DNA of 64,000 bases from Victivallis vadensis. Lineage in GTDB: Bacteria > Verrucomicrobiota > Lentisphaeria > Victivallales > Victivallaceae. This document shows, piece after piece, positions 9,326 through 56,593 of this stretch. The translations under genes were made by a program, and so were the position numbers. Numbering within the stretch: the stretch's first letter is position 1; every line of letters starts with the position of its first letter. Below the pieces are notes generated by a model, which saw only the letters and a program-made list of their open reading frames with translations, was not told the DNA's origin and did no database searches. The stretch is from the NCBI GenBank assembly GCA_040393525.1, contig JBEBTY010000012.1:15400-79399 (forward strand), written 5' to 3'.

Positions 9326-10396
9326 TCAGAATTTGACCGGCGCACCGGTGCGATTTGATTCATAGATCGCGTCGAGAAGACGCATGACGATCACGCCTTC
9401 TTCGGGTTGAACCAAGAATGGCGTGTTGTCGCGTACCGCTTCTGCGAAGAGGTGGAACGCATTGCTCACCTCCGGCGAGGAGTGAAGGCGACAGTCGAAC
9501 TGCTTGCCGTCAATATCCTCGTAAAGCTCCGCATCCCAGGTGTAACCTTCGTTCAGGTTCTGCTGATAGAGGCCACCTTTGTTGCCGAGGAGGCGGGTGG
9601 ACATCTGCTCGTTCTCTTTGATGTTGGATGCCCAGGAGGCGTCGAGTTCCAATGTGGCGCCGTTCTTGAATTTAATCATCGCGCAGGCGAAGTCTTCCAC
9701 CGTGTAATCCAACCCCCGCTTGGCGGCCATTTCGCCGGCCAGCGCGCAGTAAGTGCTGCCCATGACCCAAGCCGGTTCCGGGTAACCCATCAGCCAGAGC
9801 GCGAGGTCGAGTCGATGTACTCCGAGGTCGATCAACGGGCCGCCGCCGGACTGTTTCTTGTCAAAGAACCAGCTTCCCGCGCCGCCGCCTTTGGTGTTGA
9901 AACTGTTTGCGGCCAACCCCGGAACTCCGCGTCGACGCAGCCAGACGCTACGCGCATAATAGATGTTGCCGAGTTTGCCTGCGTCGACCAGATCCTTCAT
10001 CGCCCGCGATTGCGGATTGAAGCGGTAGCTGAAGTCGATACCGAGCTTGCGATTGAGTTTTTTCGCCACATCGAGCATCTCCTGCGCCTCGGCGGTATTC
10101 ATCGCCATCGGTTTTTCGCAGAGGACGTTCGCTCCGGCCTCCAGCCCGGCGATGGTCAGATCTTTGTGCTGATCGTTCGGGACCGCAACGGAGAGGATGT
10201 CCAGCTTCTCATTGCGGATCATATCGATACCTTCCGCATAGATCTTCGGAAGGTTGAACTCCTTTTGCGCCGCTTCGCGCTTGGATTGAATACGATCTGC
10301 GATTGCGACGACTTCAACGTCGGGGTGAGTCACATATCCGGCGAGGTGGCTGCGCCCCATTCCGAGGCCGATTACGCCGACTTTCAACTTGGCCAT
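9326..10396 (-). CDS. Gfo/Idh/MocA oxidoreductase
   Basis: KVGVIGLGMG, VLCEKPMA, GGGPLIDLGVH. Confidence 0.92.
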   Translation of the reverse strand: MAKLKVGVIGLGMGRSHLAGYVTHPDVEVVAIADRIQSKREAAQKEFNLPKIYAEGIDMIRNEKLDILSVAVPNDQHKDLTIAGLEAGANVLCEKPMAMNTAEAQEMLDVAKKLNRKLGIDFSYRFNPQSRAMKDLVDAGKLGNIYYARSVWLRRRGVPGLAANSFNTKGGGAGSWFFDKKQSGGGPLIDLGVHRLDLALWLMGYPEPAWVMGSTYCALAGEMAAKRGLDYTVEDFACAMIKFKNGATLELDASWASNIKENEQMSTRLLGNKGGLYQQNLNEGYTWDAELYEDIDGKQFDCRLHSSPEVSNAFHLFAEAVRDNTPFLVQPEEGVIVMRLLDAIYESNRTGAPVKF

Positions 10397-18576: not shown

Positions 18577-21500
18577 ATGAAAATTCTGTCTTCGTTGTTT
18601 GCCGCTGCGCTTCTTCTTCCGCTTTGCGGGCAGGAGTTGATGCCGGATGGTTCGTTTGAAAATTCCGCGGTGGGGAAAGCGCCGAAAGGCTGGTTCGTCG
18701 GGCGGGCGCAAGGGGCGCAAAGCGTGGTCGAGGTGGTCGGCGGCGGATTGGGAACGGAGGGGAAAAATGTTTTGAAAATCATTTCGACCTCTCCGGTTAA
18801 GGCACACCGTTTCAGTCATATCACCACTTCGTTGCCGCTTGTTCCGGGGGAACGTTACCGCTTGCAGTACAATGCGCGCGGGAAAAACGTCGGCGGGTAC
18901 CAGTGGAGCTTCGGGAAGTCGTGGAAAGAGCGGTTTCGCGCTACCACGGTTTCGGAAAAATTCGAGCCGTTCTCTTACGATTTTATCGCCAAGCCGGAAG
19001 AGTTTGAGAATGGGAAATATAAAATCCAGATCCTGATCGAAGACATCGCCGATGAACTCTGGATCGATGAGATCAGCATCCACTCTCTTGCACCGCAGGT
19101 GATTCCGGCGAGCGCGTTTCTGGCGGAAAAAATCTGGCCGGTCCAGGATCTCCCCGGTGGCGGTGGAATTGCGTTCAACGCCGTTGACGGCAACTATACC
19201 GGGGACGCCAAAGCAGCGCGCCTGAGCGGAAATTTCGCAATGGCGTTCGAGAAAGACGGTCTGGTTGTGACGGCGAAAATCAAGGATCCGGTCATTCGCG
19301 TCCGTCAACATGGCGCAATGTGGACGGGTGACTCGATCCAGCTTCGGATTGACCGTACCGGAAAACGGGGCGATTCTGCCGAACTCTCCGATCTGGAGAT
19401 CGGTTTCGCTCCGGATCAAGAGCGCGTCAATACCTGGTGTTGGCAGTTTGACCGAGCGCTCAAAGAAGAGGAATGCGTAGTCGAAGGCGGCCTGACAAAC
19501 GACGGGTATCAATTCCGGGCGCTGCTGAAGTGGAAACTGCTGGACACGATCGAAACCAACCCCGACCGGTTGTTCTCCTTCAACTTCATCGTGAACAACG
19601 ACGACGGCACGGATCGGCGGGTCTGGTTTCTCGCTCCCGGAATTCATACCCCGTCCAAAAGCAGTGTAGAGAATCTGCTGGCGTGGCACCAGACGGGAGA
19701 ATTGCAGATGCGCGTTGTTCCCGATGAACCGGCATTTTGGAAAAACGCCTCCGGTCGCGTGTTCCTGACCGGTCTGGAGAGTGCGGACAGCCAGACGGCG
19801 ACGCTGGTGTTGCGTGACGGCAAAGGGCAAAGCATTCGCTCCACGGAAACGCTTCCGGTGCTGAAAAAAGGGGATATTTGCCGGTTGATTTATCATCTGG
19901 ATGCCGGGGCATTGGATAACGGCTCCGTGACACTGGAGCTGATTTTGGCGGACGGTCGCAAGATGACGGGTGAACTTCTGAAACGCAACGTCGGCGTTGA
20001 GCTGAAGGCAGGTACGGAAGCTGCCCGCAAAGAGTATCAGGAACTTTCCACCAAGCGCGACGCGGTCGGAGAAGACTGGAAAAAATCGAATTATTTGAAT
20101 ACCGGATTCTATTTGATTGATCGTCACCTCGGATTTCTGGAGCGTGACCTGAATCGCAACTACGCCTCGAAGGAAGAGGAAGAGTATTATCAGCGAATCT
20201 GCGACGTCGAGTTGACCGGTGTGCGGGAGGCTCTACAGCGGATGCGGACACTGTTGGCTCAGGGCGAAAAGGGGAAGGCTGGATTTGCCGCGTGGCGTTA
20301 CATCAGCAGCCCGGCGAAGTGTCATAACGGTTTTTTTACTGCCACCGCGGCGAGCGAAAGCGGTTCGGAAACACGCCCGCTCTTCTTTGCCGGATTCGGT
20401 CATTTTCAGGATTTGGTGCGCGACATTCCGGTCATGAACCGGATCGGGGCGAATCTGATTCAAATCGAAATCGGTCCCTCCCGTTTCTTCAAAGCTCCAA
20501 GCCCGGGGCAGGGGGATCTGGAAAATATCGATTTGGATCGGTTCCGAAATTACATCGAGAAAGCGATGCAAAGTGCGCAACAGGAAAATGTTAAGATTAG
20601 CTTGCTGATTTCCCCGCATTATCCGTTTTCCCACTTTGTCAACAAAGACCGTGCAAACACACACGACACGAATGGCCGTTATGCTTTCTATCATCGCGGA
20701 AATCGCCCGATGCTCGAAGCGTATGTGAAGGGGTTGTTCGCCGAACTGGTGAAGAGTCCTTATAAAGACACGATCCAGAGCATCGTGCTCTCCAACGAGC
20801 CGAATATGAAGACCATGACCATGTCCACCTGCTTCCTGAAGCCGGAATTTGAAACGTATCTACAGGAGCGTTTCGGATCGCTGGAGAAGTATAACAGTTT
20901 GACCGGTAAGAATTATTCTTCGATTGACGATCTGCTTGCCGCGGGGGAGGGGGATCCGGTGGCGCGTTATGCGTTCCACAGTTTCAAGCGCGAATTTTTC
21001 GCCGAATGGCATAAGTGGTTCGGCGATCTGGTGCGTGCGGCGTGGCCCGGCATGCCGACTTCTTCCAAGGTGATGGCGCTGCATAACTACTTGCCGTCAA
21101 CTTACGGCGACGCGATCGATCTGGAGTTGTTCGGCGAGATTACGGAAATCAACGGGAACGACAACTTCAGTTACTACGACTCGGCACGCTGGGGATCCAA
21201 CTGGCCGCGGCTCACCATGTCCTGCGATGTTCAGTACACGCAACGCAAGAACGCCATCGCCAACACCGAGAACCATGTGATCCCGGATGGCACCAAGGGT
21301 GCGGTGATTCCGCAACATATCTATACTTCTACCATGCAGCAATTTCTGCACGGTACCGGCTCCATCGTCACCTGGGTCTGGGTGGATCTGGATTGGGCGG
21401 CGGAACAAAAAGCGCCGATCGACCTGAAAGGCGGCGTGTTCCGTCGCCCCTCCGCGATTCTGGCGCAGAGCGAGGCGCTGCTGGATGCAAACCGGATCGC

Positions 21501-48233: not shown

Positions 48234-48301
48234 AAAAGCTGAAAAAACCATGAGGCGGATTTGCTTTTCTGTAAATCCGCGGTATAGTAATATTATCACG
48301 A

Positions 48302-48375
48302 GGCGTGGTAGCCAAGAGGTTAGGCAGCGGTCTGCAAAATCGTTTAGACCGGTTCGATTCCGGTCCACGCCTCCA
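48302..48375 (+). tRNA. tRNA-Cys (GCA)
   Basis: Acceptor stem GGCGTGG/CCACGCC, anticodon loop CTGCAAA, GGTTCGATTCC T-arm, U discriminator, encoded CCA; upstream TTGCTT-16-TATAGT. Confidence 0.96.
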
Positions 48376-48393
48376 TTTTTTTGCCCTGATTTT
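48359..48393 (+). repeat. attL core (tRNA-Cys 3' end plus 18 bp)
   Basis: TCCGGTCCACGCCTCCA-T7-GCCCTGATTTT, repeated at 56558-56593. Confidence 0.92.
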
Positions 48394-48445
48394 CGACTCT
48401 TCTCCCCTCAACTGCTTGCACATACATCAGGCGGCGCAATGCTTG

Positions 48446-48488
48446 TGAGGCACAAACTGTGACACAACTGTGACACAGGTGAGGCACA
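48446..48488 (+). repeat. Left arm-type repeat array, 4 x TGWGRCACA
   Basis: Units start at 48446, 48458, 48469 and 48480. Confidence 0.85.
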
Positions 48489-48509
48489 ATCGCACACGCC
48501 ACCGGAAAG

Positions 48510-50408
48510 GTGACTGTGAAGCAAGAAAACCATCTCTGGAACCGCAACGGCATCCTCTACTTCCGCATGAGGGTACCCGCTTCTCTGCGAAGACACATTC
48601 AAAGCAAAGAAATTCGCTGCTCATTGCGGGGAATGGACTTGCAAACTGCGGTAAGGAAAACTAAATTACTGGAGAGTGAACTGGCAAAGCTCTTCAAACA
48701 GGCATTAAACGGATTGGTGGACATGGCGATATTGCATCCTCTGGTGAGGCAGATTTGCAACAACTTCCTTTTCTTTGACGGGCAAAGCCAGCTTCGGCAA
48801 TTCCGAATGAGCTTTTCTCTACAGCAGTGTAATGATGTAGAGGAATGGGTCCGTTACTGGCTCAGGAATGAAATTACTCAGTCTCCCATCGCCCAGATGT
48901 TTGCCTTCTATGCCGCTCAACGCGGCGAGGCTGTCGATATCAATGACCCGAATAACGATGCCCTGATTCTGGACTTCTACAAGGCATACCTTGAAGTTCT
49001 GCGTATCCAGAAGGAACGAATGAACGGCAATTTGCGAAACGGTTATGATGATGCAACGCCGGAGGGACGGTTTTCACAGATTCTCTCCCCTGATGATACT
49101 TCTCCCGATTTATTGCAGGCCCCGGAATTTGATGTAAGAGAAATTCTTTCCATGTGTGCCGTCCCGGAAGAGAAAAAATGTCCTCCTACATGGGAGAATC
49201 TGCAACATCATTCCCGGAAATCGCCAAAAGAAGAAAAGCCCTCCATTTCGTCCTCTCTTCCGGTCGAAGCTCCTGTTCAAATCACTCCGTCTTCCGGTAT
49301 AACTCTGGTGGAAGCGGTACGGAAATATATCCGTGACAGACAGGTCAAAAAGAACTGGAGCGATAAATTGACCACCATGAAAACCGGATATCTCAACGTT
49401 CTATTGGAACACTTCGGGGCAGACAAAGATGTTGCTTTGATTTCCAATGAAGACATGCTGGACCTTTATGAAAACGTCCTCAAAAAATATCCGTGGAACA
49501 GAAATAAACTTTATCCGGGAAAAAGTCTTGCCGAAATCATGCCGTTATCCCCCAGATACATCGACGCGGGAACAGTGCAGAACTATATCGGGGCTATCAG
49601 TACATTTTTCAGATGGTGTCAAAAAACAGGCCGTTATATGATTGCGAATCCGGCGGATGGCTTTTGCGAGGGTAGGCAAGAACGGGATGATGAGCAGAGA
49701 CTGCCGTTTGCGACCAAGGAATTGCAAAGTATTTTTCAAGAAGTCGCAGCAATGCCGAATCGTCCTTATTTCAGTAGAAAAATGTATCCGGCCCGCTACT
49801 GGGTATCGCTCATTGCTCTGTTTCAGGGAATGCGGATAAATGAAATCTGTCAGCTCTTTCTGGACAACATTTTTTCAGTCAATGGAATTCCCTGCATTGA
49901 AATCACAGCCAATGAAGAACGTAAACAGAAAGTAAAAAACAAATACAGCCGCCGGATAATCCCGATTCATTCGACTCTACTGGAACTGGGTTTTCTGGAC
50001 TATCATGATTCGCTATGGAGCGCAGAAAACAGATTGAATGACCAGCTTTTCCCCATGCTGACAGCCAGTGACGAGGGCTATAGCAGGAAGATGAACTCAT
50101 TTAACGATGTCATCCATAAACTGATTCCAGACGAAAAAAGAAAAACCTTTCATAGCTTTCGGCATAATTTTGACACGGTATTGATGAATCTCCCGGATGC
50201 GAACCCATTCCTGATTGCCTGTCTGGACGGGCATGAACGGACAGGAACGCTTGCCGGGCGCTATGCCAAAGGTCGGATTCCTGATATGCAAGGCATGCTT
50301 GAAAGGCTTGTGTACGATTTTGATATCTTCGAGTGTTTGGGCAAAACTCCGCTTGACGACAAAATCATTGCTACGCATATAGCCCGGCTTCCTGCCAGAG
50401 AGTTCTAA
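48510..50408 (+). CDS. int: Tyrosine recombinase/integrase with DUF6538-like N-terminus
   Basis: LWNRNGILYFRMRVPASLR...EIRCSL; catalytic GMRINEICQL, KNKYSRRIIPIH, HSFRH, LDGH, RY all present. Confidence 0.93.
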   Translation: MTVKQENHLWNRNGILYFRMRVPASLRRHIQSKEIRCSLRGMDLQTAVRKTKLLESELAKLFKQALNGLVDMAILHPLVRQICNNFLFFDGQSQLRQFRMSFSLQQCNDVEEWVRYWLRNEITQSPIAQMFAFYAAQRGEAVDINDPNNDALILDFYKAYLEVLRIQKERMNGNLRNGYDDATPEGRFSQILSPDDTSPDLLQAPEFDVREILSMCAVPEEKKCPPTWENLQHHSRKSPKEEKPSISSSLPVEAPVQITPSSGITLVEAVRKYIRDRQVKKNWSDKLTTMKTGYLNVLLEHFGADKDVALISNEDMLDLYENVLKKYPWNRNKLYPGKSLAEIMPLSPRYIDAGTVQNYIGAISTFFRWCQKTGRYMIANPADGFCEGRQERDDEQRLPFATKELQSIFQEVAAMPNRPYFSRKMYPARYWVSLIALFQGMRINEICQLFLDNIFSVNGIPCIEITANEERKQKVKNKYSRRIIPIHSTLLELGFLDYHDSLWSAENRLNDQLFPMLTASDEGYSRKMNSFNDVIHKLIPDEKRKTFHSFRHNFDTVLMNLPDANPFLIACLDGHERTGTLAGRYAKGRIPDMQGMLERLVYDFDIFECLGKTPLDDKIIATHIARLPAREF

Positions 50409-50665
50409 TAAACTATAATTTCCCCGATTCAACCGGGCCGGGGAATTTATTGAAAAATCTTCATTTGATAAAATCAAAGAAGCGATTATATTAATTCTCG
50501 AGTTAGCGGCATTGAATGTCGATGCCGTAAAATTAGTTGCAGAATAAAGAAGTGACAGGCGATGTTTCATCGCCGCTACAGTTCTCAGAACTCCACAGGG
50601 AAACCTGATTTTCTCTTTATTCTCTTAGCCTAGGCACATTGTGCCTTCATGCAAGGAGAATGAAA

Positions 50666-50926
50666 ATGAGAGAAAACCAAACCTCTCCCGCCCCGAACCC
50701 GCAATCATTGACCGACCGGCAATTGATGATGGAATTGCTTTCCATGATTCCGGCAGACCGGCTTGAGAAGCTGAAGCTGGTGGAACTCAGAGCGGACAAA
50801 AAATTCCGGCGCACGATTCAGGTTCGAATCAAAGTGTTGAGCAAAGAATCTGACTTGGACCCGCTCCGGAAAAAAGTTCAGATGTGTAACGCCCGTTTTG
50901 CGGCTCATGAAATTTACTTCAGCTAG
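50666..50926 (+). CDS. Small hypothetical protein, antisense to the GHKL gene tail
   Basis: AAGGAG 7 nt before ATG at 50666; 86 aa; composition more GC-rich than the GHKL body. Confidence 0.4.
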   Translation: MRENQTSPAPNPQSLTDRQLMMELLSMIPADRLEKLKLVELRADKKFRRTIQVRIKVLSKESDLDPLRKKVQMCNARFAAHEIYFS

Positions 50927-52912
50927 ATATTTATCCAGAAGGTTATTTTTTTGTTCTTCTTGAATTTTTATCTCAAGCCCTCGTTTTTGTTCTGTCAATT
51001 TGAAACGAGCTTCTCGAATAATACGGTTCCATGTTCGACAGTAGACGCGATAATTACCGTGTAGATAATCCTGCAAAATTTGCTCTTGAGGGTTATCTCC
51101 TTGATAGAGAGCTTCCATATCGGCTGTAATATCTGAAGAAACCAGCCAATATTCCCATTTATTATTTTCGGATATTTCCACTCCAGTAGTTTTTGCAATA
51201 CCGCGATAAATATCCATTGCCTGTTTTTGCAAACTTACTCCTATCGGCACATTAGGAGCCTTAAGCTCGACGATTAAATTAAAATTCCGCTTCCCTATGG
51301 AATCGGGAATCGTTTTCCACATATATAGGTCAGGAATTTTTTTGAGGTATGAGTCTACTTTTTTAGCATCTTTCTCTATGCCCTTCTCTATTTCTTCTAT
51401 TTCCGAAACAGACAATTCTTGAATCTTCAAATTGCTCTTTAACACATTTGTCAGACTTTGGTCACTATTGCTCAGGTTGTAATCAAATTTATCGCCAAAA
51501 ATCCAAGTCTCCTGCTCAACAATCTTATGTAATTGAGTTCGCTCTTTGAGTTTTTTCTTGTAAAAATCCTTATGGACCAATGAATCCAATACATCAAGGA
51601 ACGTTTCTCGTCGTAAAATTTCGTTATAATGTTGTATCAACGCAGGAAGAGGAGTGCTCTTACAGATATTTTGAAAGTCTGTTGCCTCTTCGGGAGACAG
51701 TTCCAAGACTTCGCTGAGATTGTCGGCTATAGAAGCATCTTTCTCAATGAATTTTCTGAGTAACTTGAATAGTAAAATCAATGAGCTTTTTTTACTGCTT
51801 AAAACCCTTTCCTCGTGTTCAAGAATGGAGAACGCGCATAAATCAAACAAGTTCCGCTCTGCGGCTTCAACTTCATTTTTCGGCTCAACTGCAAAAGGAT
51901 AATATTCTGCTTCTGAAAATATTTTGAATCGCTCCTTAGAACGCTTTTTCCGCATTTCATATAGAAAGTGTAACAGTCTCTCCCGATAAGCTTTTTTAAT
52001 AGGAGTTGCGGCATCCATAAAATCTGAGGAATATTCATCATATGCAGAGAAAAAATCAGAAAGTAAAAATACAGTATGATATGGCAAGGAATCAGCAGCA
52101 TTTACGCCAGAAGCAAAGGCTCCTTTATAATTAAAGCTTTTATCAAACAGAAATGTATGCTTATGTCTTTTGAAGTTATAAGCAGGTTTCCAGACAATGA
52201 AATGATAGTCAAAGATATATTCTGTCTCATTAAAATTCAGTACGAATTTCCCTTTGTTTTCACCGTCAATGAAATCGTCAGGATTTAAAGCACTTCCGTT
52301 AATATTTAATGTAAAATCAGGGTCACTCTTAATGTAGAGGCCAACTAACTCGGCGAGCCGGAAAGCAAATCTATCAGAATTTTTTAACTTCTGGGCATTA
52401 AGAGAAATATTGCTGATGGTAACTTCTGTGCCTGTCGAATTTCTTTTTGACTCAACTTCATCTCCCCAAGGAAATGATTCCGGTTCTGAAAAGCAGGATT
52501 CAATGGAGTATTCGTATAATTTCCCATCGCTATTTTTATAGCATGTACTCCATTTTATATCAGTTCCCAATGAAAGGTATTTGAAGCGTCCAATTCCTTG
52601 GCGTCCTTGGTAAGGCCGCCCATCGGGACGCTTTTTGTCTTTTTTCCACGACTTATTATATTGCTTAAAATACTCTTCTACATGTGCAAAAGGTATTCCC
52701 GTCCCATTATCTTTTATGACTATTGACGATATTTCGTGAACTGAAAAATCGCCATTATCCAATCCACATTTTTCGTATTCAAAGTTAATATCTACTCGTG
52801 TTGCCGAGGAATCGATGGAATTGAAGATGATTTGGGCTAATGCATCATAAACATCACAGGTTGCGTGCTTTTGCAATGCTTCCTTTGTTATTTCTACCTT
52901 GATAGGTTTCAT
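50705..52912 (-). CDS. GHKL (HSP90/MORC-like) ATPase fused to a PD-(D/E)xK-like nuclease
   Basis: DALAQIIFNSIDS, DNGTGI, GRQGIGRF; C-terminal ETWIFG, IPDLYM...LIVELKAP. ATG at 52912 follows GGAG, 1 bp after the res stop. Markedly AT-rich. Confidence 0.8.
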   Translation of the reverse strand: MKPIKVEITKEALQKHATCDVYDALAQIIFNSIDSSATRVDINFEYEKCGLDNGDFSVHEISSIVIKDNGTGIPFAHVEEYFKQYNKSWKKDKKRPDGRPYQGRQGIGRFKYLSLGTDIKWSTCYKNSDGKLYEYSIESCFSEPESFPWGDEVESKRNSTGTEVTISNISLNAQKLKNSDRFAFRLAELVGLYIKSDPDFTLNINGSALNPDDFIDGENKGKFVLNFNETEYIFDYHFIVWKPAYNFKRHKHTFLFDKSFNYKGAFASGVNAADSLPYHTVFLLSDFFSAYDEYSSDFMDAATPIKKAYRERLLHFLYEMRKKRSKERFKIFSEAEYYPFAVEPKNEVEAAERNLFDLCAFSILEHEERVLSSKKSSLILLFKLLRKFIEKDASIADNLSEVLELSPEEATDFQNICKSTPLPALIQHYNEILRRETFLDVLDSLVHKDFYKKKLKERTQLHKIVEQETWIFGDKFDYNLSNSDQSLTNVLKSNLKIQELSVSEIEEIEKGIEKDAKKVDSYLKKIPDLYMWKTIPDSIGKRNFNLIVELKAPNVPIGVSLQKQAMDIYRGIAKTTGVEISENNKWEYWLVSSDITADMEALYQGDNPQEQILQDYLHGNYRVYCRTWNRIIREARFKLTEQKRGLEIKIQEEQKNNLLDKYLAEVNFMSRKTGVTHLNFFPERVQVRFFAQHFDSNLNRAPEFFVRSEFHQLQLLKPVCRNHGKQFHHQLPVGQ

Positions 52913-52913
52913 T

Positions 52914-55118
52914 TTATTCTCCAATAACGCTTTTTAGCAAATTAAAACATGGACCATTTGTCATCACAAATAAGCATCGCCCATTGCTGTTCTTTGCCCA
53001 AAATTCACCGACGATTCGCTTTTCTTTGGAGTCGTCGTTGCTGTAGCGGTCTGCACCTTTATATTCAATAACCAATATACGGCCATCTTTGAGTTTTGCC
53101 ACAAAGTCAGGATAGAATTTGCGGTTGTGCAACTGAAGAAAAAAGGAGTCGTGTTCGCGTTGGTCGAGGTTGCGGACCCAGTATTCGACTTCCGGCATCT
53201 GGTCGATGAAGATGGCACATTGCTCCTCTTCGCCGCCGTCCTTTCCGTCGAAACTCCCGACTATCGGGTAATAGTGTTTCTTGAATTTATAAGAGCCTTG
53301 ATATTGGCTGTTGACCGGATAGTCAGACGGATATTGGAAGCAGCGTTCGGGAGTCACAATCGCCTTGAATTCGCCCTCCGGCAACAGTAGTTGCTGAAAT
53401 GCGGCTTTTCGCGCCAGTTGGCGTGCGAAATTGATTTTATCTTCAATTGCCGTCTTCAACTTGTATTTATCCACCACCATTTGCGCCAACGGAATATTTC
53501 GGTTGGTTTGCATATCCAGAATCAGTCTGGTTAGAAATGCGGTCATCTCCTGTGCGGTAATGTCACGGTACTGGATACGTTTACCCAGCCAATAAACGAG
53601 GTCGGAAACTTCCCAGTTATGTGCGGCATTTACATCCCAATACGCGCTGTCCTGCTGAACCCGTTCAACGAACTCCAAGACGATTTTGCCGTTTTCCGCG
53701 TCGATAGTACCGCGTTGGATTTCATCGATGCTCGGGCTGTATTCACTAGCGCTGAAGATTGCAGGGAGATTGCTCAAGCTCCAATCGCATTCCTCCAGAA
53801 TGTCTTCGCAGGACTCAAACAACTCCCCCTGTTGAAACGAAAGGAGCGGCACGGAGAATTCAAGTCGTCTTTCCGCCGGTGACGGGTTGGGAATGTGGAT
53901 ATGGTTGCTTTGCAGAAACGCCTTTTCGATATTGGCGGCATCTTTGGGGCAATGGCGCTTCAGTATTTCCCGGTCTTTCACGGTCATCGGCTCGTGGAAT
54001 ATCAGGGCTCCGTCATAGGGATTGAATTCCGGTTTGCTTTCCAGAAGTTCGCCCTCAGCGAGATATGGAATCTCCGAACGGTCGGTCAGCATCAGAACCA
54101 CTTCAGTATCGGGAAGCCCGCCCGTCGGGTATTGGCCCGCAAACAAATCGTCGCTGTCATCATAGGTCGGAACCTGCTGAATCAACCGTTCCACTTCTTG
54201 CCGGTCAAAGCCATTCTGCGTGAGAGCATCTTTGAGGTTCTGTGCTATCTCGTTGAAGGAAGCTGTGGCGAATGCGTAAGACTGATTGAGTTCCGGGAAA
54301 ATTTTGCGTTTGGCTCTGGGCATACGTAGAATTCGCCCGAGAATCTGTTCCACCTGAATTTTGGAATGACTTTCGACAATGGAACACAAGACGTAGGCAA
54401 AAGAACAGTCCCATCCCTCTTTCAACTTCTGCTGGGTGATAATATAGCGGACCGGGCAGTCGCCCTTGAACAAATCCAGCTTGTTGATTTCGTCGATGGG
54501 GCCGGTTGCGATTTTCACCTCGTCTTCATTTAGCCGGAAGTCTTCAACCAGAACTACCTTCAGGCGTTCCGCATGAAGGGTATCGACCAGCTCGCTTTTC
54601 CTCTCCGCCTGAAGCAGCACAATCGGACGGATATATTCGCCGGTTTTCTGCTGTTCTAGCATCGCCAGTCGTTCCAATTGATTGCGCCGATTGATAGCGT
54701 CCTGCAAGAGCTCACGCCAATCAGGACGGCCTTCCACCACAATTGGGAGCTTAATCATCTCTTCGGCTTTCAACTCCTGCGCCGACACACTATAAAGAAT
54801 GTTCGAAGGATTGACTTGTACATCCGGCGTGGCGGTAAATTCCATGATGCAACTGGGGCTGAAGTTCGCCAAGGTGTCGAAGGTGAGGCGGGTTCTGGCG
54901 TTGTGCGCCTCATCAACAATGACGATGGGACGCCGCATAGCAATCACGTTAGCCAGCGACTCCACCGGTTTGCCGGTATTGGGATTCAGTTCCAACTGGC
55001 CGGGCCACGCTTGAGCAGAAGAATCGAAAAAACTCATCAACGAACCATCCTGCTTATAAACCCGCAATCCGGTCGTATCGTCCCGCTTGAAGCTCTGCAT
55101 GGTCGAAACAATCACGAT
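52914..55118 (-). pseudogene. res: Type III restriction endonuclease Res subunit, 5'-truncated
   Basis: IVDEAHNA, EFTATP, QKLKEGWDC, QILGRILR, YPDFVAKLKDGRILVIEYKG. No Walker A; in-frame stop at 55131-55133 upstream; no RBS and no mod gene. Confidence 0.82.
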
Positions 55119-56150
55119 AAATCCAGAGCTTTAGCGGCATTGCTGACTCCGGCTCTGGTCGCTGGCGGGATTTTGAATGCAAGGTCTCCGATGATGTTGC
55201 TGGAAGCGGATAAAAGCCAGTCGGGAAAAGGTTTCTTTTCCAAAATTCTTGGAGCCATTTACAATGAGACGCCGGTAACGGTAGCTCAGCGTGAACGCGG
55301 TACCGGAGGATTGGATGAGAACTTTGATGCGGCGGTTTGCAGTGGTCGTCAGATTATCGTGCTGGACAACCTGCGCGGTAAGCTGAACAGCCCGCAAATC
55401 GAAGCCTTTCTGACCTCGGAACGACATATGGCCAGAATGCCTTACTCTCCTCAGGTTGAAGTGGAGCCCGGACGTTATTTCATCATGGCGACCTCGAATA
55501 ACTTCGAGTTGACGGTTGACATGGCGAATCGGGCCTGCATCATCCGCATTTTCAAGCAATCGAAGAATTATCAGTTCCAATCTTTCCCCGAAGGAGATAT
55601 CCTTGAGCATATCAAGGCAAATCAACCTCGCTATCTGGGGGCGGTTTTCGCCGTCATCCGGGAATGGGTCAGATTGGAAAGCCAGAGAATGCCCCGTGCC
55701 GCGCACGATTTTCGTGATTGGTGCCGGGCGCTCGATTGGATGGTCCAGAATATCCTCCATGGCGCTCCTTTAATGGATGGGCATCGGGAGATTCAGATGG
55801 TAACGGTGCATCCTGAAGTCAATTGGCTGAAGGGGCTCTGTAATATTATCCGTGACCTCAATGAACTGGATAGTCCGATGACGGCTCTCGACCTTGCGGA
55901 GCGTTGTGAACTGGCCGAAGTGGAGCTTCCCGGAGCGCAGGGAGCTCTGTGGCAGGATTTGGACGAACGGGGACATACGCAAGTCTGTTCGCAAATCGGA
56001 AGGCGTCTCGCGAATCTGTATAAGAAGCTGGGAGACGACCGCGAGGTTTGCATCGGCAACTTCTCGGTCACACGGGAAAACCGAAGGATGACCTATGCCT
56101 CCGGTAAATCCGAGAATGCCATGTGCTACCGGTTTAATCCCGTAGCATAA
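55116..56150 (+). pseudogene. Primase-associated P-loop NTPase/helicase domain, 5'-truncated
   Basis: EADKSQSGKG (Walker A-like), VLDNLRG (Walker B-like), ATSNN, DMANRACII. The first ~145 aa of the tracked ORF (54678..) are only the antisense of res. Confidence 0.65.
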
Positions 56151-56194
56151 TCTCTCCAGCCGTTGCCTGATTGATTCCGATTGACGTCAGCCCG

Positions 56195-56222
56195 GCCCTC
56201 TTCGGAGGGCTTTTTCTTTTTA
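56195..56222 (+). terminator. Intrinsic terminator with UUCG loop
   Basis: GCCCTC-TTCG-GAGGGC followed by TTTTTCTTTT. Confidence 0.8.
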
Positions 56223-56374
56223 TAGCAAACAATAGAGCTCACTCTAATGCAAGTCCGCAGAGATTACGCTCCCGCCTTGGAAGCGCAAGAGCTCTTCAGC
56301 ATTTATAGATAAGTTTTGGCACTTTTACATATAAATAGGTAATGGAGCAGAGCAGTAATTTCCATTGAAATAAT

Positions 56375-56402
56375 TTGACATGAACCGATTGTATGCTATT
56401 TT
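56375..56402 (+). promoter_or_regulatory. Outward-facing sigma70-like promoter near attR
   Basis: TTGACA-16-TATTTT with an extended TG. Confidence 0.4.
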
Positions 56403-56425
56403 ATAAATTAATGGAGGCGTTGCGC

Positions 56426-56460
56426 TGAGGCACAAAGTGTGACACAACTGTGACACAGGT
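56426..56460 (+). repeat. Right arm-type repeat array, 3 x TGWGRCACA
   Basis: 34 of 35 bp identical to 48446-48480, same orientation. Confidence 0.85.
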
Positions 56461-56557
56461 TTTGTTGCCAAAGTGTTTGTTTTGAATAGAATTAACTTTG
56501 CAAACAGTTGATTTGCAAGAGTTGACAAGGAAAAAAATTTGGAAGGTTCAAAACGTC

Positions 56558-56593
56558 TCCGGTCCACGCCTCCATTTTTTTTGCCCTGATTTT
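56558..56593 (+). repeat. attR core
   Basis: TCCGGTCCACGCCTCCA-T8-GCCCTGATTTT; one more T than attL. Confidence 0.92.

Follow-up and report, generated by a model that had tools for sequence, protein, structure and literature searches.

Near-identical arrays of the 9-bp unit TGWGRCACA stand just inside both ends of an 8.2-kb integrative island in Victivallis vadensis. The DNA analysed was a stretch of 64,000 nucleotides (assembly GCA_040393525.1, contig JBEBTY010000012.1, positions 15,400 to 79,399; hereafter the window, in whose numbering positions are given). We predict, with a probability of about 0.8, that these arrays are arm-type sites of the island's own tyrosine integrase (Int), which carries the Pfam domain DUF6538 at its N-terminus. 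An initial annotation of the same DNA had proposed this role, and comparison supports it, through a natural attP junction, through the conservation of the units, and through the recurrence of such arrays beside related integrase genes. DUF6538 is an uncharacterised domain of thousands of integrases, for which arm-site binding would thus be a probable function.

Paired arrays inside the att sites

The island occupies positions 48359-56593 and is inserted in the 3' end of a tRNA-Cys gene. It is bounded by att copies of 35 and 36 bp, whose sole difference is a run of seven versus eight T residues. The initial annotation had placed four units at 48446-48488 and three at 56426-56457, with spacings of 11-12 bp, and all of these were recovered as exact matches. 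Unit starts lie at 48446, 48458, 48469 and 48480 on the left (spacing 12, 11 and 11 bp) and at 56426, 56438 and 56449 on the right (12 and 11 bp). The window holds seven exact matches to TGWGRCACA against 1.09 expected, a number reached by none of 100 shuffles, and all seven are on the forward strand within the two arrays. The block 48446-48480 matches 56426-56460 at 34 of 35 positions in direct orientation. The left array is 52 bp from its core, while the right core lies 97 bp from the end of the 35-bp block and 100 bp from the last unit, so that the distances of about 52 and 97 bp given at first are both correct.

An attP junction and selection on the units

Excision had been expected to put the arrays on both sides of attP. 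This configuration is present in a 1028-bp metagenome contig (L106), which carries, in reverse complement, the attP of an element 94% identical to the island. Over 596 bp, L106 is colinear with the predicted attP (window 56300-56593 joined to 48394-48700; 94.8% identity), and has the right arm with three units, the core, the left arm with four units and int in this order, with no tRNA. As read from this layout, L106 is an excised circle or a tandem junction, and in either case a product of recombination at the core. Two further contigs represent the integrated state, one (L096) with an attL-type junction at tRNA-Cys and one (L090) with an attR-type junction next to unrelated cargo.

Relatives at 91-94% DNA identity have only two modules in common with the window, while their cargo differs. 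The left module (48359-50907) comprises the core, the P' arm, int and a gene for a 90-residue protein (p90); the right module (56305-56593) comprises the P arm and core. Conservation with L096 stops at 50907, the cargo beside the right-arm module of L106 and L090 is unrelated to that of the window, and the cargo of L090, L096 and a further relative, L004, also differs from it. Metagenome contigs were also scanned with a 20-mer from the array, TGTGACACAACTGTGACACA. This gave 19 matches, only four of them in contigs of the window's island family; nine of the other contigs, including all the longer ones, were inspected and had no integrase near the match and mostly few long open reading frames (ORFs). 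The 20-mer alone is not diagnostic, because most matching contigs lie outside the island family. The same scan of viral contigs found no match.

The pattern of substitutions separates the units from the DNA between them. When the left array of the window is compared with those of L106, L096 and L004, all 36 unit positions are invariant, whereas four of the seven spacer positions vary (p = 2.8e-4 for this pattern, were four substitutions placed at random), and the changes in the right arm likewise fall outside the units. This supports the view that the units are under selection and the spacers drift. It also bears on the idea that the repeats have no function of their own and that the right copy is left over from an end duplication or gene conversion. 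The 34/35 identity of the two ends could indeed mean a recent duplication, but invariant units with changing spacers, the repetition of the layout in independent elements with unrelated units and the very strong enrichment across the family (see below) make such an origin highly improbable.

Recurrence of the arrays across DUF6538 integrases

If the arrays belong to the integrase, homologous integrases should be flanked by similar arrays, and they clearly are. The both-arm layout was found in at least seven further elements with clear attL and attR, from several phyla and at other tRNA targets. In an 11.6-kb island at tRNA-Met in a V. vadensis metagenome-assembled genome (L006), whose Int is 41% identical to that of the window, TTGCCAC units with 11-bp spacing lie just before int, and a copy identical at 26 of 27 positions lies 78 bp inside attR. 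Units in direct orientation on both arms were also found in L021 (tRNA-Ser), L071 (tRNA-Leu), L060 (Marinomonas), L083 (Micavibrio), L087 (Rifleibacterium) and L051; in these six elements, as in L006, the right array is 50-120 bp inside attR. The units themselves vary: five TGNNNCACA units precede int in L001, four GGGCACA units were found in L019, and L007, L010, L013, L015 and L016 have three TCCCACA units plus one inverted. In these close relatives only the int-proximal array is seen, because the contig ends or the island exceeds the 10-kb flank.

The frequency of such arrays was measured in 60 non-redundant loci with a DUF6538-type N-terminus, drawn from Lentisphaerota, Alpha- and Gammaproteobacteria, Geobacteraceae, Riflebacteria and other groups. 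A strict detector, which required at least three units with no more than one mismatch to the first, missed the mixed-unit array of the window and was replaced by a pair test, which scored direct pairs of a CAC-containing 8-mer with at most one mismatch at a spacing of 10-14 bp. Of the 60 loci, 36 had such a pair in the 110 bp before the DUF6538 start, compared with 0.66% of 8724 background windows of the same loci and 5 of 828 (0.6%) upstream regions of other genes of at least 200 codons. The pairs are therefore about 100 times commoner before DUF6538 integrase genes than before other genes (binomial p ~1e-62, Fisher p ~1e-42); as the sample contains related loci, both values make the enrichment look more significant than it is. 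When the units are aligned on CAC, their consensus reads TG-N3-CAC-A-A, with TGGTACACAA as its commonest form, and related integrases have units in common. In the family as a whole, 5-30 bp separate the units from the start of int. All 44 loci with a neighbouring tRNA gene on the same strand lie just 3' of that gene, and eleven tRNA species are represented.

The integrase and its DUF6538 domain

The int ORF encodes a 632-residue tyrosine recombinase. It matches Phage_integrase (PF00589) at residues 432-586 with 32.2 bits (cut-off 27.1), and its catalytic residues are intact: in a comparison with 12 homologues R442, K476, H548, R551 and Y585 are invariant and H575 nearly so. DUF6538 (PF20172) was detected at residues 8-64 of the whole protein (E 7e-14, 51.6 bits against a cut-off of 27), and scored 55.9 bits when residues 1-99 were searched alone. 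The left array had been said to end 21 bp before int. That holds for the opening of the ORF, but the second GTG, at 48516, is more likely to be the real start than the GTG at 48510, because GGAAAGG (48503-48509) then stands 6 nt upstream, L001, a homologue with 60% identity, lacks a start codon where the first GTG would be, and a 93%-identical protein (P0001) begins MKQENH. With this start, the array ends 27 bp before the gene.

An AlphaFold model of residues 1-99 (predicted local distance difference test score 83.6) has strands at 9-12, 15-21 and 34-38 and a helix at 44-66, with many arginine and lysine residues in the strands. Arm-binding domains have a canonical topology of three strands and a helix (PMC8138268), with which the modelled N-terminus agrees. 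The domain can be placed in this fold class by topology only, as the searches described below did not establish homology to a solved member. A Foldseek search with the full model gave E values of 5e-7 to 1e-4 to the Brujita, Tn1549 and lambda integrases and recovered only the core-binding and catalytic domains. An insert of about 200 residues (Int residues ~66-258; 48708-49283), made of helices followed by an 85-residue low-confidence stretch (173-258), separates the N-terminal from the core-binding domain and makes these integrases unusually long, at 600-650 residues.

Close relatives of the protein are rare, with 12 clusters at E <= 1e-5 in 5.8 billion proteins, and they place the source organism in the Lentisphaerota (Victivallaceae-like); DUF6538 as such heads at least 4,612 protein clusters at 50% identity. 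A tblastn search of Int against phage and plasmid records returned only integrases that were unannotated or had generic names, and none that had been characterised; in the literature library searched, nothing relevant was found on DUF6538 (PF20172, IPR046668) or the archetypal unit.

Which protein binds the arrays

Int is the only gene common to the array-bearing elements. Its neighbours vary, with p90 in the window and HTH_17 genes in some relatives. Excisionases bind direct repeats in att arms, and the arrays might accordingly be sites for an excisionase or another small DNA-binding protein of the island, such as p90, instead of Int. A conserved small gene does follow int in the window and its close relatives (p90 is 90% identical to the 90-residue product of a gene in L004), and HTH_17 genes, of the Xis/AlpA type, lie near int in more distant relatives. 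However, the accessory genes differ among elements with CAC arrays: the small islands L083, L021 and L061 have no accessory Pfam domain in common and lack both p90 and HTH_17, and no HTH_17 or other common accessory domain that would point to a recombination directionality factor was found in the window or in the array-bearing small islands. In L070 the DNA between the copies of an inverted repeat that encloses int encodes only Int and an N-terminal Int fragment. Furthermore, both arms carry the same unit, and the unit consensus tracks the integrase family across phyla. Binding by an accessory protein in place of Int is therefore unlikely.

One natural recombinant is relevant to the part of Int that may read the units. 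L010 is a mosaic, which has its N-terminus and linker (97-100% identity) and its arrays as in the tRNA-Tyr elements L013 and L016, and its core-binding and catalytic domains (96-98%) and tRNA-Met target as in L015. This fits a modular picture, in which the N-terminal domain and the arrays would go together, but could also be plain linkage. L010 keeps Tyr-type copies of the tRNA end (pseudo-cores, described below).

Several points weigh against the assignment of the arrays to Int and its N-terminal domain. Foldseek searches of the PDB and BFVD with the N-terminal model gave no match at E <= 0.001, small domains being hard for such tools, and an N-terminal profile run against PDB sequences gave only weak matches to lambda Int (E 0.15-0.9), which fall in its core-binding region and not in its arm-binding domain. 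A covariation test, in which mutual information was computed for pairs of domain residues and unit bases, gave a few high z-scores but no decisive result (the scores were not used, as they lacked phylogenetic control). The arrays adjoin the coding region of the N-terminus, so that their co-inheritance could reflect linkage alone, and the loci compared are not phylogenetically independent. Two distant loci, L061 and L058, carry different units on their two arms. As regards autoregulation, the DNA in front of int in the integrated island (48250-48650) yielded no sigma-70-like promoter, although promoters of this phylum may differ from the consensus. The fold topology agrees with that of arm-binding domains, but neither structure nor sequence gave a significant match; that the N-terminal domain itself contacts the units is something that we infer.

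Both of these distant loci are Riflebacteria elements, with two TTCTCCAT units beside int and three TGCTACG units on the other arm (L061 6639-6662 and 9334-9366); in L058 (4866-5160) the differing arm units stand in attP-like order on one contig.

Proposed mechanism and autoregulation

The mechanism that we infer combines binding by the N-terminal domain with arm-core bridging, DNA bending and autoregulation of int. In the excised circle, the attP core would be flanked on one side by three units at a distance of about 100 bp, with a possible bend site in the interval, and on the other side by four units at 52 bp; all of them point in the same direction, and successive units are roughly a helical turn from each other. 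The N-terminal DUF6538 domain of each Int monomer would grip an arm unit, and the core-binding and catalytic domains of that monomer would engage a core half-site. By linking arm and core in this way, Int would fold attP into a recombination complex, and the phasing of about 11 bp would put the N-terminal domains on one face of the DNA. The possible bend site is a match to the IHF-type consensus at 56501-56513, one of only three such matches in 64 kb.

Int bound at the int-proximal array should also limit its own expression. This would follow from where the P' array lies, and has a precedent in IntS of KplE1, which represses its own promoter through P' arm sites (PMC2951348). Negative autoregulation has been predicted for most int genes that are linked to a tRNA gene in the same orientation (PMC2951348). 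In the window, tRNA-Cys and int are both on the forward strand with the array between them, and autoregulation is plausible by this analogy.

The arrays might even serve int transcription only, as an operator for Int or a host factor that has no role in recombination. The units do lie close to the int start family-wide, and promoter-like sites flank the right array. Against this, the island retains a second array at its other end, which in the integrated state is 8 kb away from int, and in at least eight elements such an array keeps a similar distance from the core. This fits an attP arm better than a promoter operator. An exclusive operator is thus improbable, while the operator and recombination roles are not mutually exclusive. 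The promoter-like sites themselves, the first of which (56375-56402) is conserved in L106 and L090, point across attR, and by hypothesis would read towards int in the circle.

Comparison with known systems

The predicted arm sites resemble those of the heterobivalent integrases of the lambda type, with their P and P' sites (PMC8138268), in several respects. Both systems have a tyrosine recombinase with a small N-terminal domain of three strands and a helix (modelled for the island Int), short non-core repeats on both attP arms at a spacing of about one turn, and a possible bend site between arm and core. Unlike lambda-type proteins, the island Int begins with DUF6538, for which neither sequence nor Foldseek searches detected similarity to a solved arm-binding domain, and has a 200-residue, partly disordered insert before the core-binding domain; its units all point the same way on both arms, and copies of the tRNA 3' end lie beside the arrays in the island's clade. 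The IntS type of KplE1, in which attL overlaps the int promoter (PMC2951348), has in common with the island a co-oriented tRNA and int with the P' arm between them, and arm sites close to the int start. It differs in integrase family and unit sequence, and the island is known from sequence alone, with no promoter located.

Genomic-island integrases of the P4/SXT type, likewise found at tRNA genes, carry the N-terminal domain DUF4102 (Arm-DNA-bind_3), which was later recognised as arm-binding and has an extra strand and helix (PMC8138268). DUF6538 is a different Pfam family, with no homology shown to DUF4102. The arrangement is therefore of a known kind, and what is new is the DUF6538 family and a usable site consensus; the lambda and KplE1 paradigms are extended, not changed. 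The DNA signature consists of two to five direct TG-N3-CAC-A units with 11-13 bp spacing directly upstream of int, and recurs 50-120 bp inside the other end, so that it can be an aid to finding the limits of such islands, many of them bearing defence genes. Naturally occurring integrase pairs whose units differ would be suited to specificity swaps.

Other features of the island and its relatives

Table 1. Features of the island and, where a locus is named, of its relatives
Feature	Position	Strand	Remarks
tRNA-Cys (GCA)	48302-48375	+	Integration target; 3' 17 nt within att repeat (ARAGORN)
attL copy of att core repeat	48359-48393		TCCGGTCCACGCCTCCA-T7-GCCCTGATTTT; direct repeat with 56558-56593
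Left (P', int-proximal) array	48446-48488	+	Four 9-bp units: TGAGGCACA, TGTGACACA, TGTGACACA, TGAGGCACA
Imperfect direct copy of tRNA 3' end	48495-48504	+	CACGCCACCG, 8/10; between array and int
Integrase gene (632-aa tyrosine recombinase ORF)	48510-50408	+	Likely start 48516
DUF6538 coding region	~48531-48701	+	
Catalytic-domain coding region	~49803-50267	+	
p90, small conserved gene (90-aa product)	50639-50926	+	After int; ends conserved left module
HATPase_c_3 protein	50705-52924	-	Cargo
Variable cargo	50908-56304		
Type III Res-like helicase/nuclease	52914-55115	-	Cargo
Primase/helicase-like ORF	end at 56150	+	Cargo; probably truncated
Terminator	56194-56211		After primase/helicase-like ORF
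Conserved right (P) arm module	56305-56557		94% identical in L106 and L090
Promoter-like site	56375-56402	+	TTGACA-16-TATTTT with TG; points to attR; consensus scan only
Inverted copy of tRNA 3' end	56412-56421	-	AACGCCTCCA, 9/10; directly outside right array
Right (P) array	56426-56457	+	Three units: TGAGGCACA, TGTGACACA, TGTGACACA
Second promoter-like site	56465-56492	+	TTGCCA-16-TAGAAT; just 3' of right array; consensus scan only
IHF-type consensus	56501-56513	-	WATCAANNNNTTR; between right array and core; may mark a bend site
attR copy of att core repeat	56558-56593		T8 variant
Inverted-repeat locus L070	9448-11481		
Inverted-repeat locus L064	9532-11837		
Inverted-repeat locus L079	9573-12450		
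Inverted-repeat locus L088	9515-12348		
Inverted-repeat locus L073	9791-14421		
Inverted-repeat locus L041	9694-14586		

The remaining features are collected in Table 1. No match to p90 was found in Pfam, PHROG or NCBIfam. The cargo (50705-56150) resembles a defence module with no obvious methylase: the HATPase_c_3 protein, which has weak similarity to the BbrUII/HgiDII family, adjoins the type III Res-like protein, and its ORF extends about 200 bp antisense into the conserved p90 gene. The match of the primase/helicase-like ORF is confined to residues 141-357 and its upstream part overlaps the Res gene, so that the ORF seems to be without its former N-terminal part.

This gene raises the question of whether the arrays might be iterons of a replication origin. 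Short phased direct repeats do look similar to iterons, relatives encode Prim-Pol or 480-residue proteins near int, and the window has its own primase/helicase-like gene. But this gene appears truncated, the arrays stand at both ends of the island beside att and not beside it, and small elements without a replication gene have arrays as well. Iterons would be expected beside an intact initiator gene and not in duplicate at the att arms, and a role as an origin is very unlikely.

Copies of the last 9-11 nt of the target tRNA, with the look of core-type half-sites, lie beside arm arrays in 8 of 44 loci, against 0.3% in controls. In the window, 48495-48504 is a possible half-site of this kind, as judged from its sequence; the tRNA-end copies here are not significant within the window alone, their significance appearing only across the clade. 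Exact equivalents of it, 10-11 nt long, are present in L006, L007, L011, L013 and L016. The copies in L006 lie at ~21279-21290, which corresponds to the inverted copy at 56412-56421 of the window, and at ~9975-9985, and those in L007 at ~9920 and ~9978; L015 has such copies as well. In several Lentisphaerota relatives, the copies form an inverted pair that flanks the int-proximal array. One bivalent Int could clamp an arm unit together with such a pseudo-core, which would make a self-contained operator or architectural element. That the core-like half-site, the array and the DUF6538 domain form a portable module, beyond accessory sites of the lambda style, is a doubtful proposal.

In Alphaproteobacteria, a block made up of the tRNA 3' end, the arm, unit pairs and 0-77 codons of int is present twice. 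The copies form an inverted repeat of 166-373 bp, 99-100% identical, with int between them. On its outer side the repeat reaches as far as the last T-loop base, and a model in which these repeats make up a symmetric attP was rejected, as the right flank is not the displaced tRNA end. The right copy in L070 encodes a stand-alone DUF6538 protein of 97 residues, which could act as an Int-derived regulator or directionality factor.

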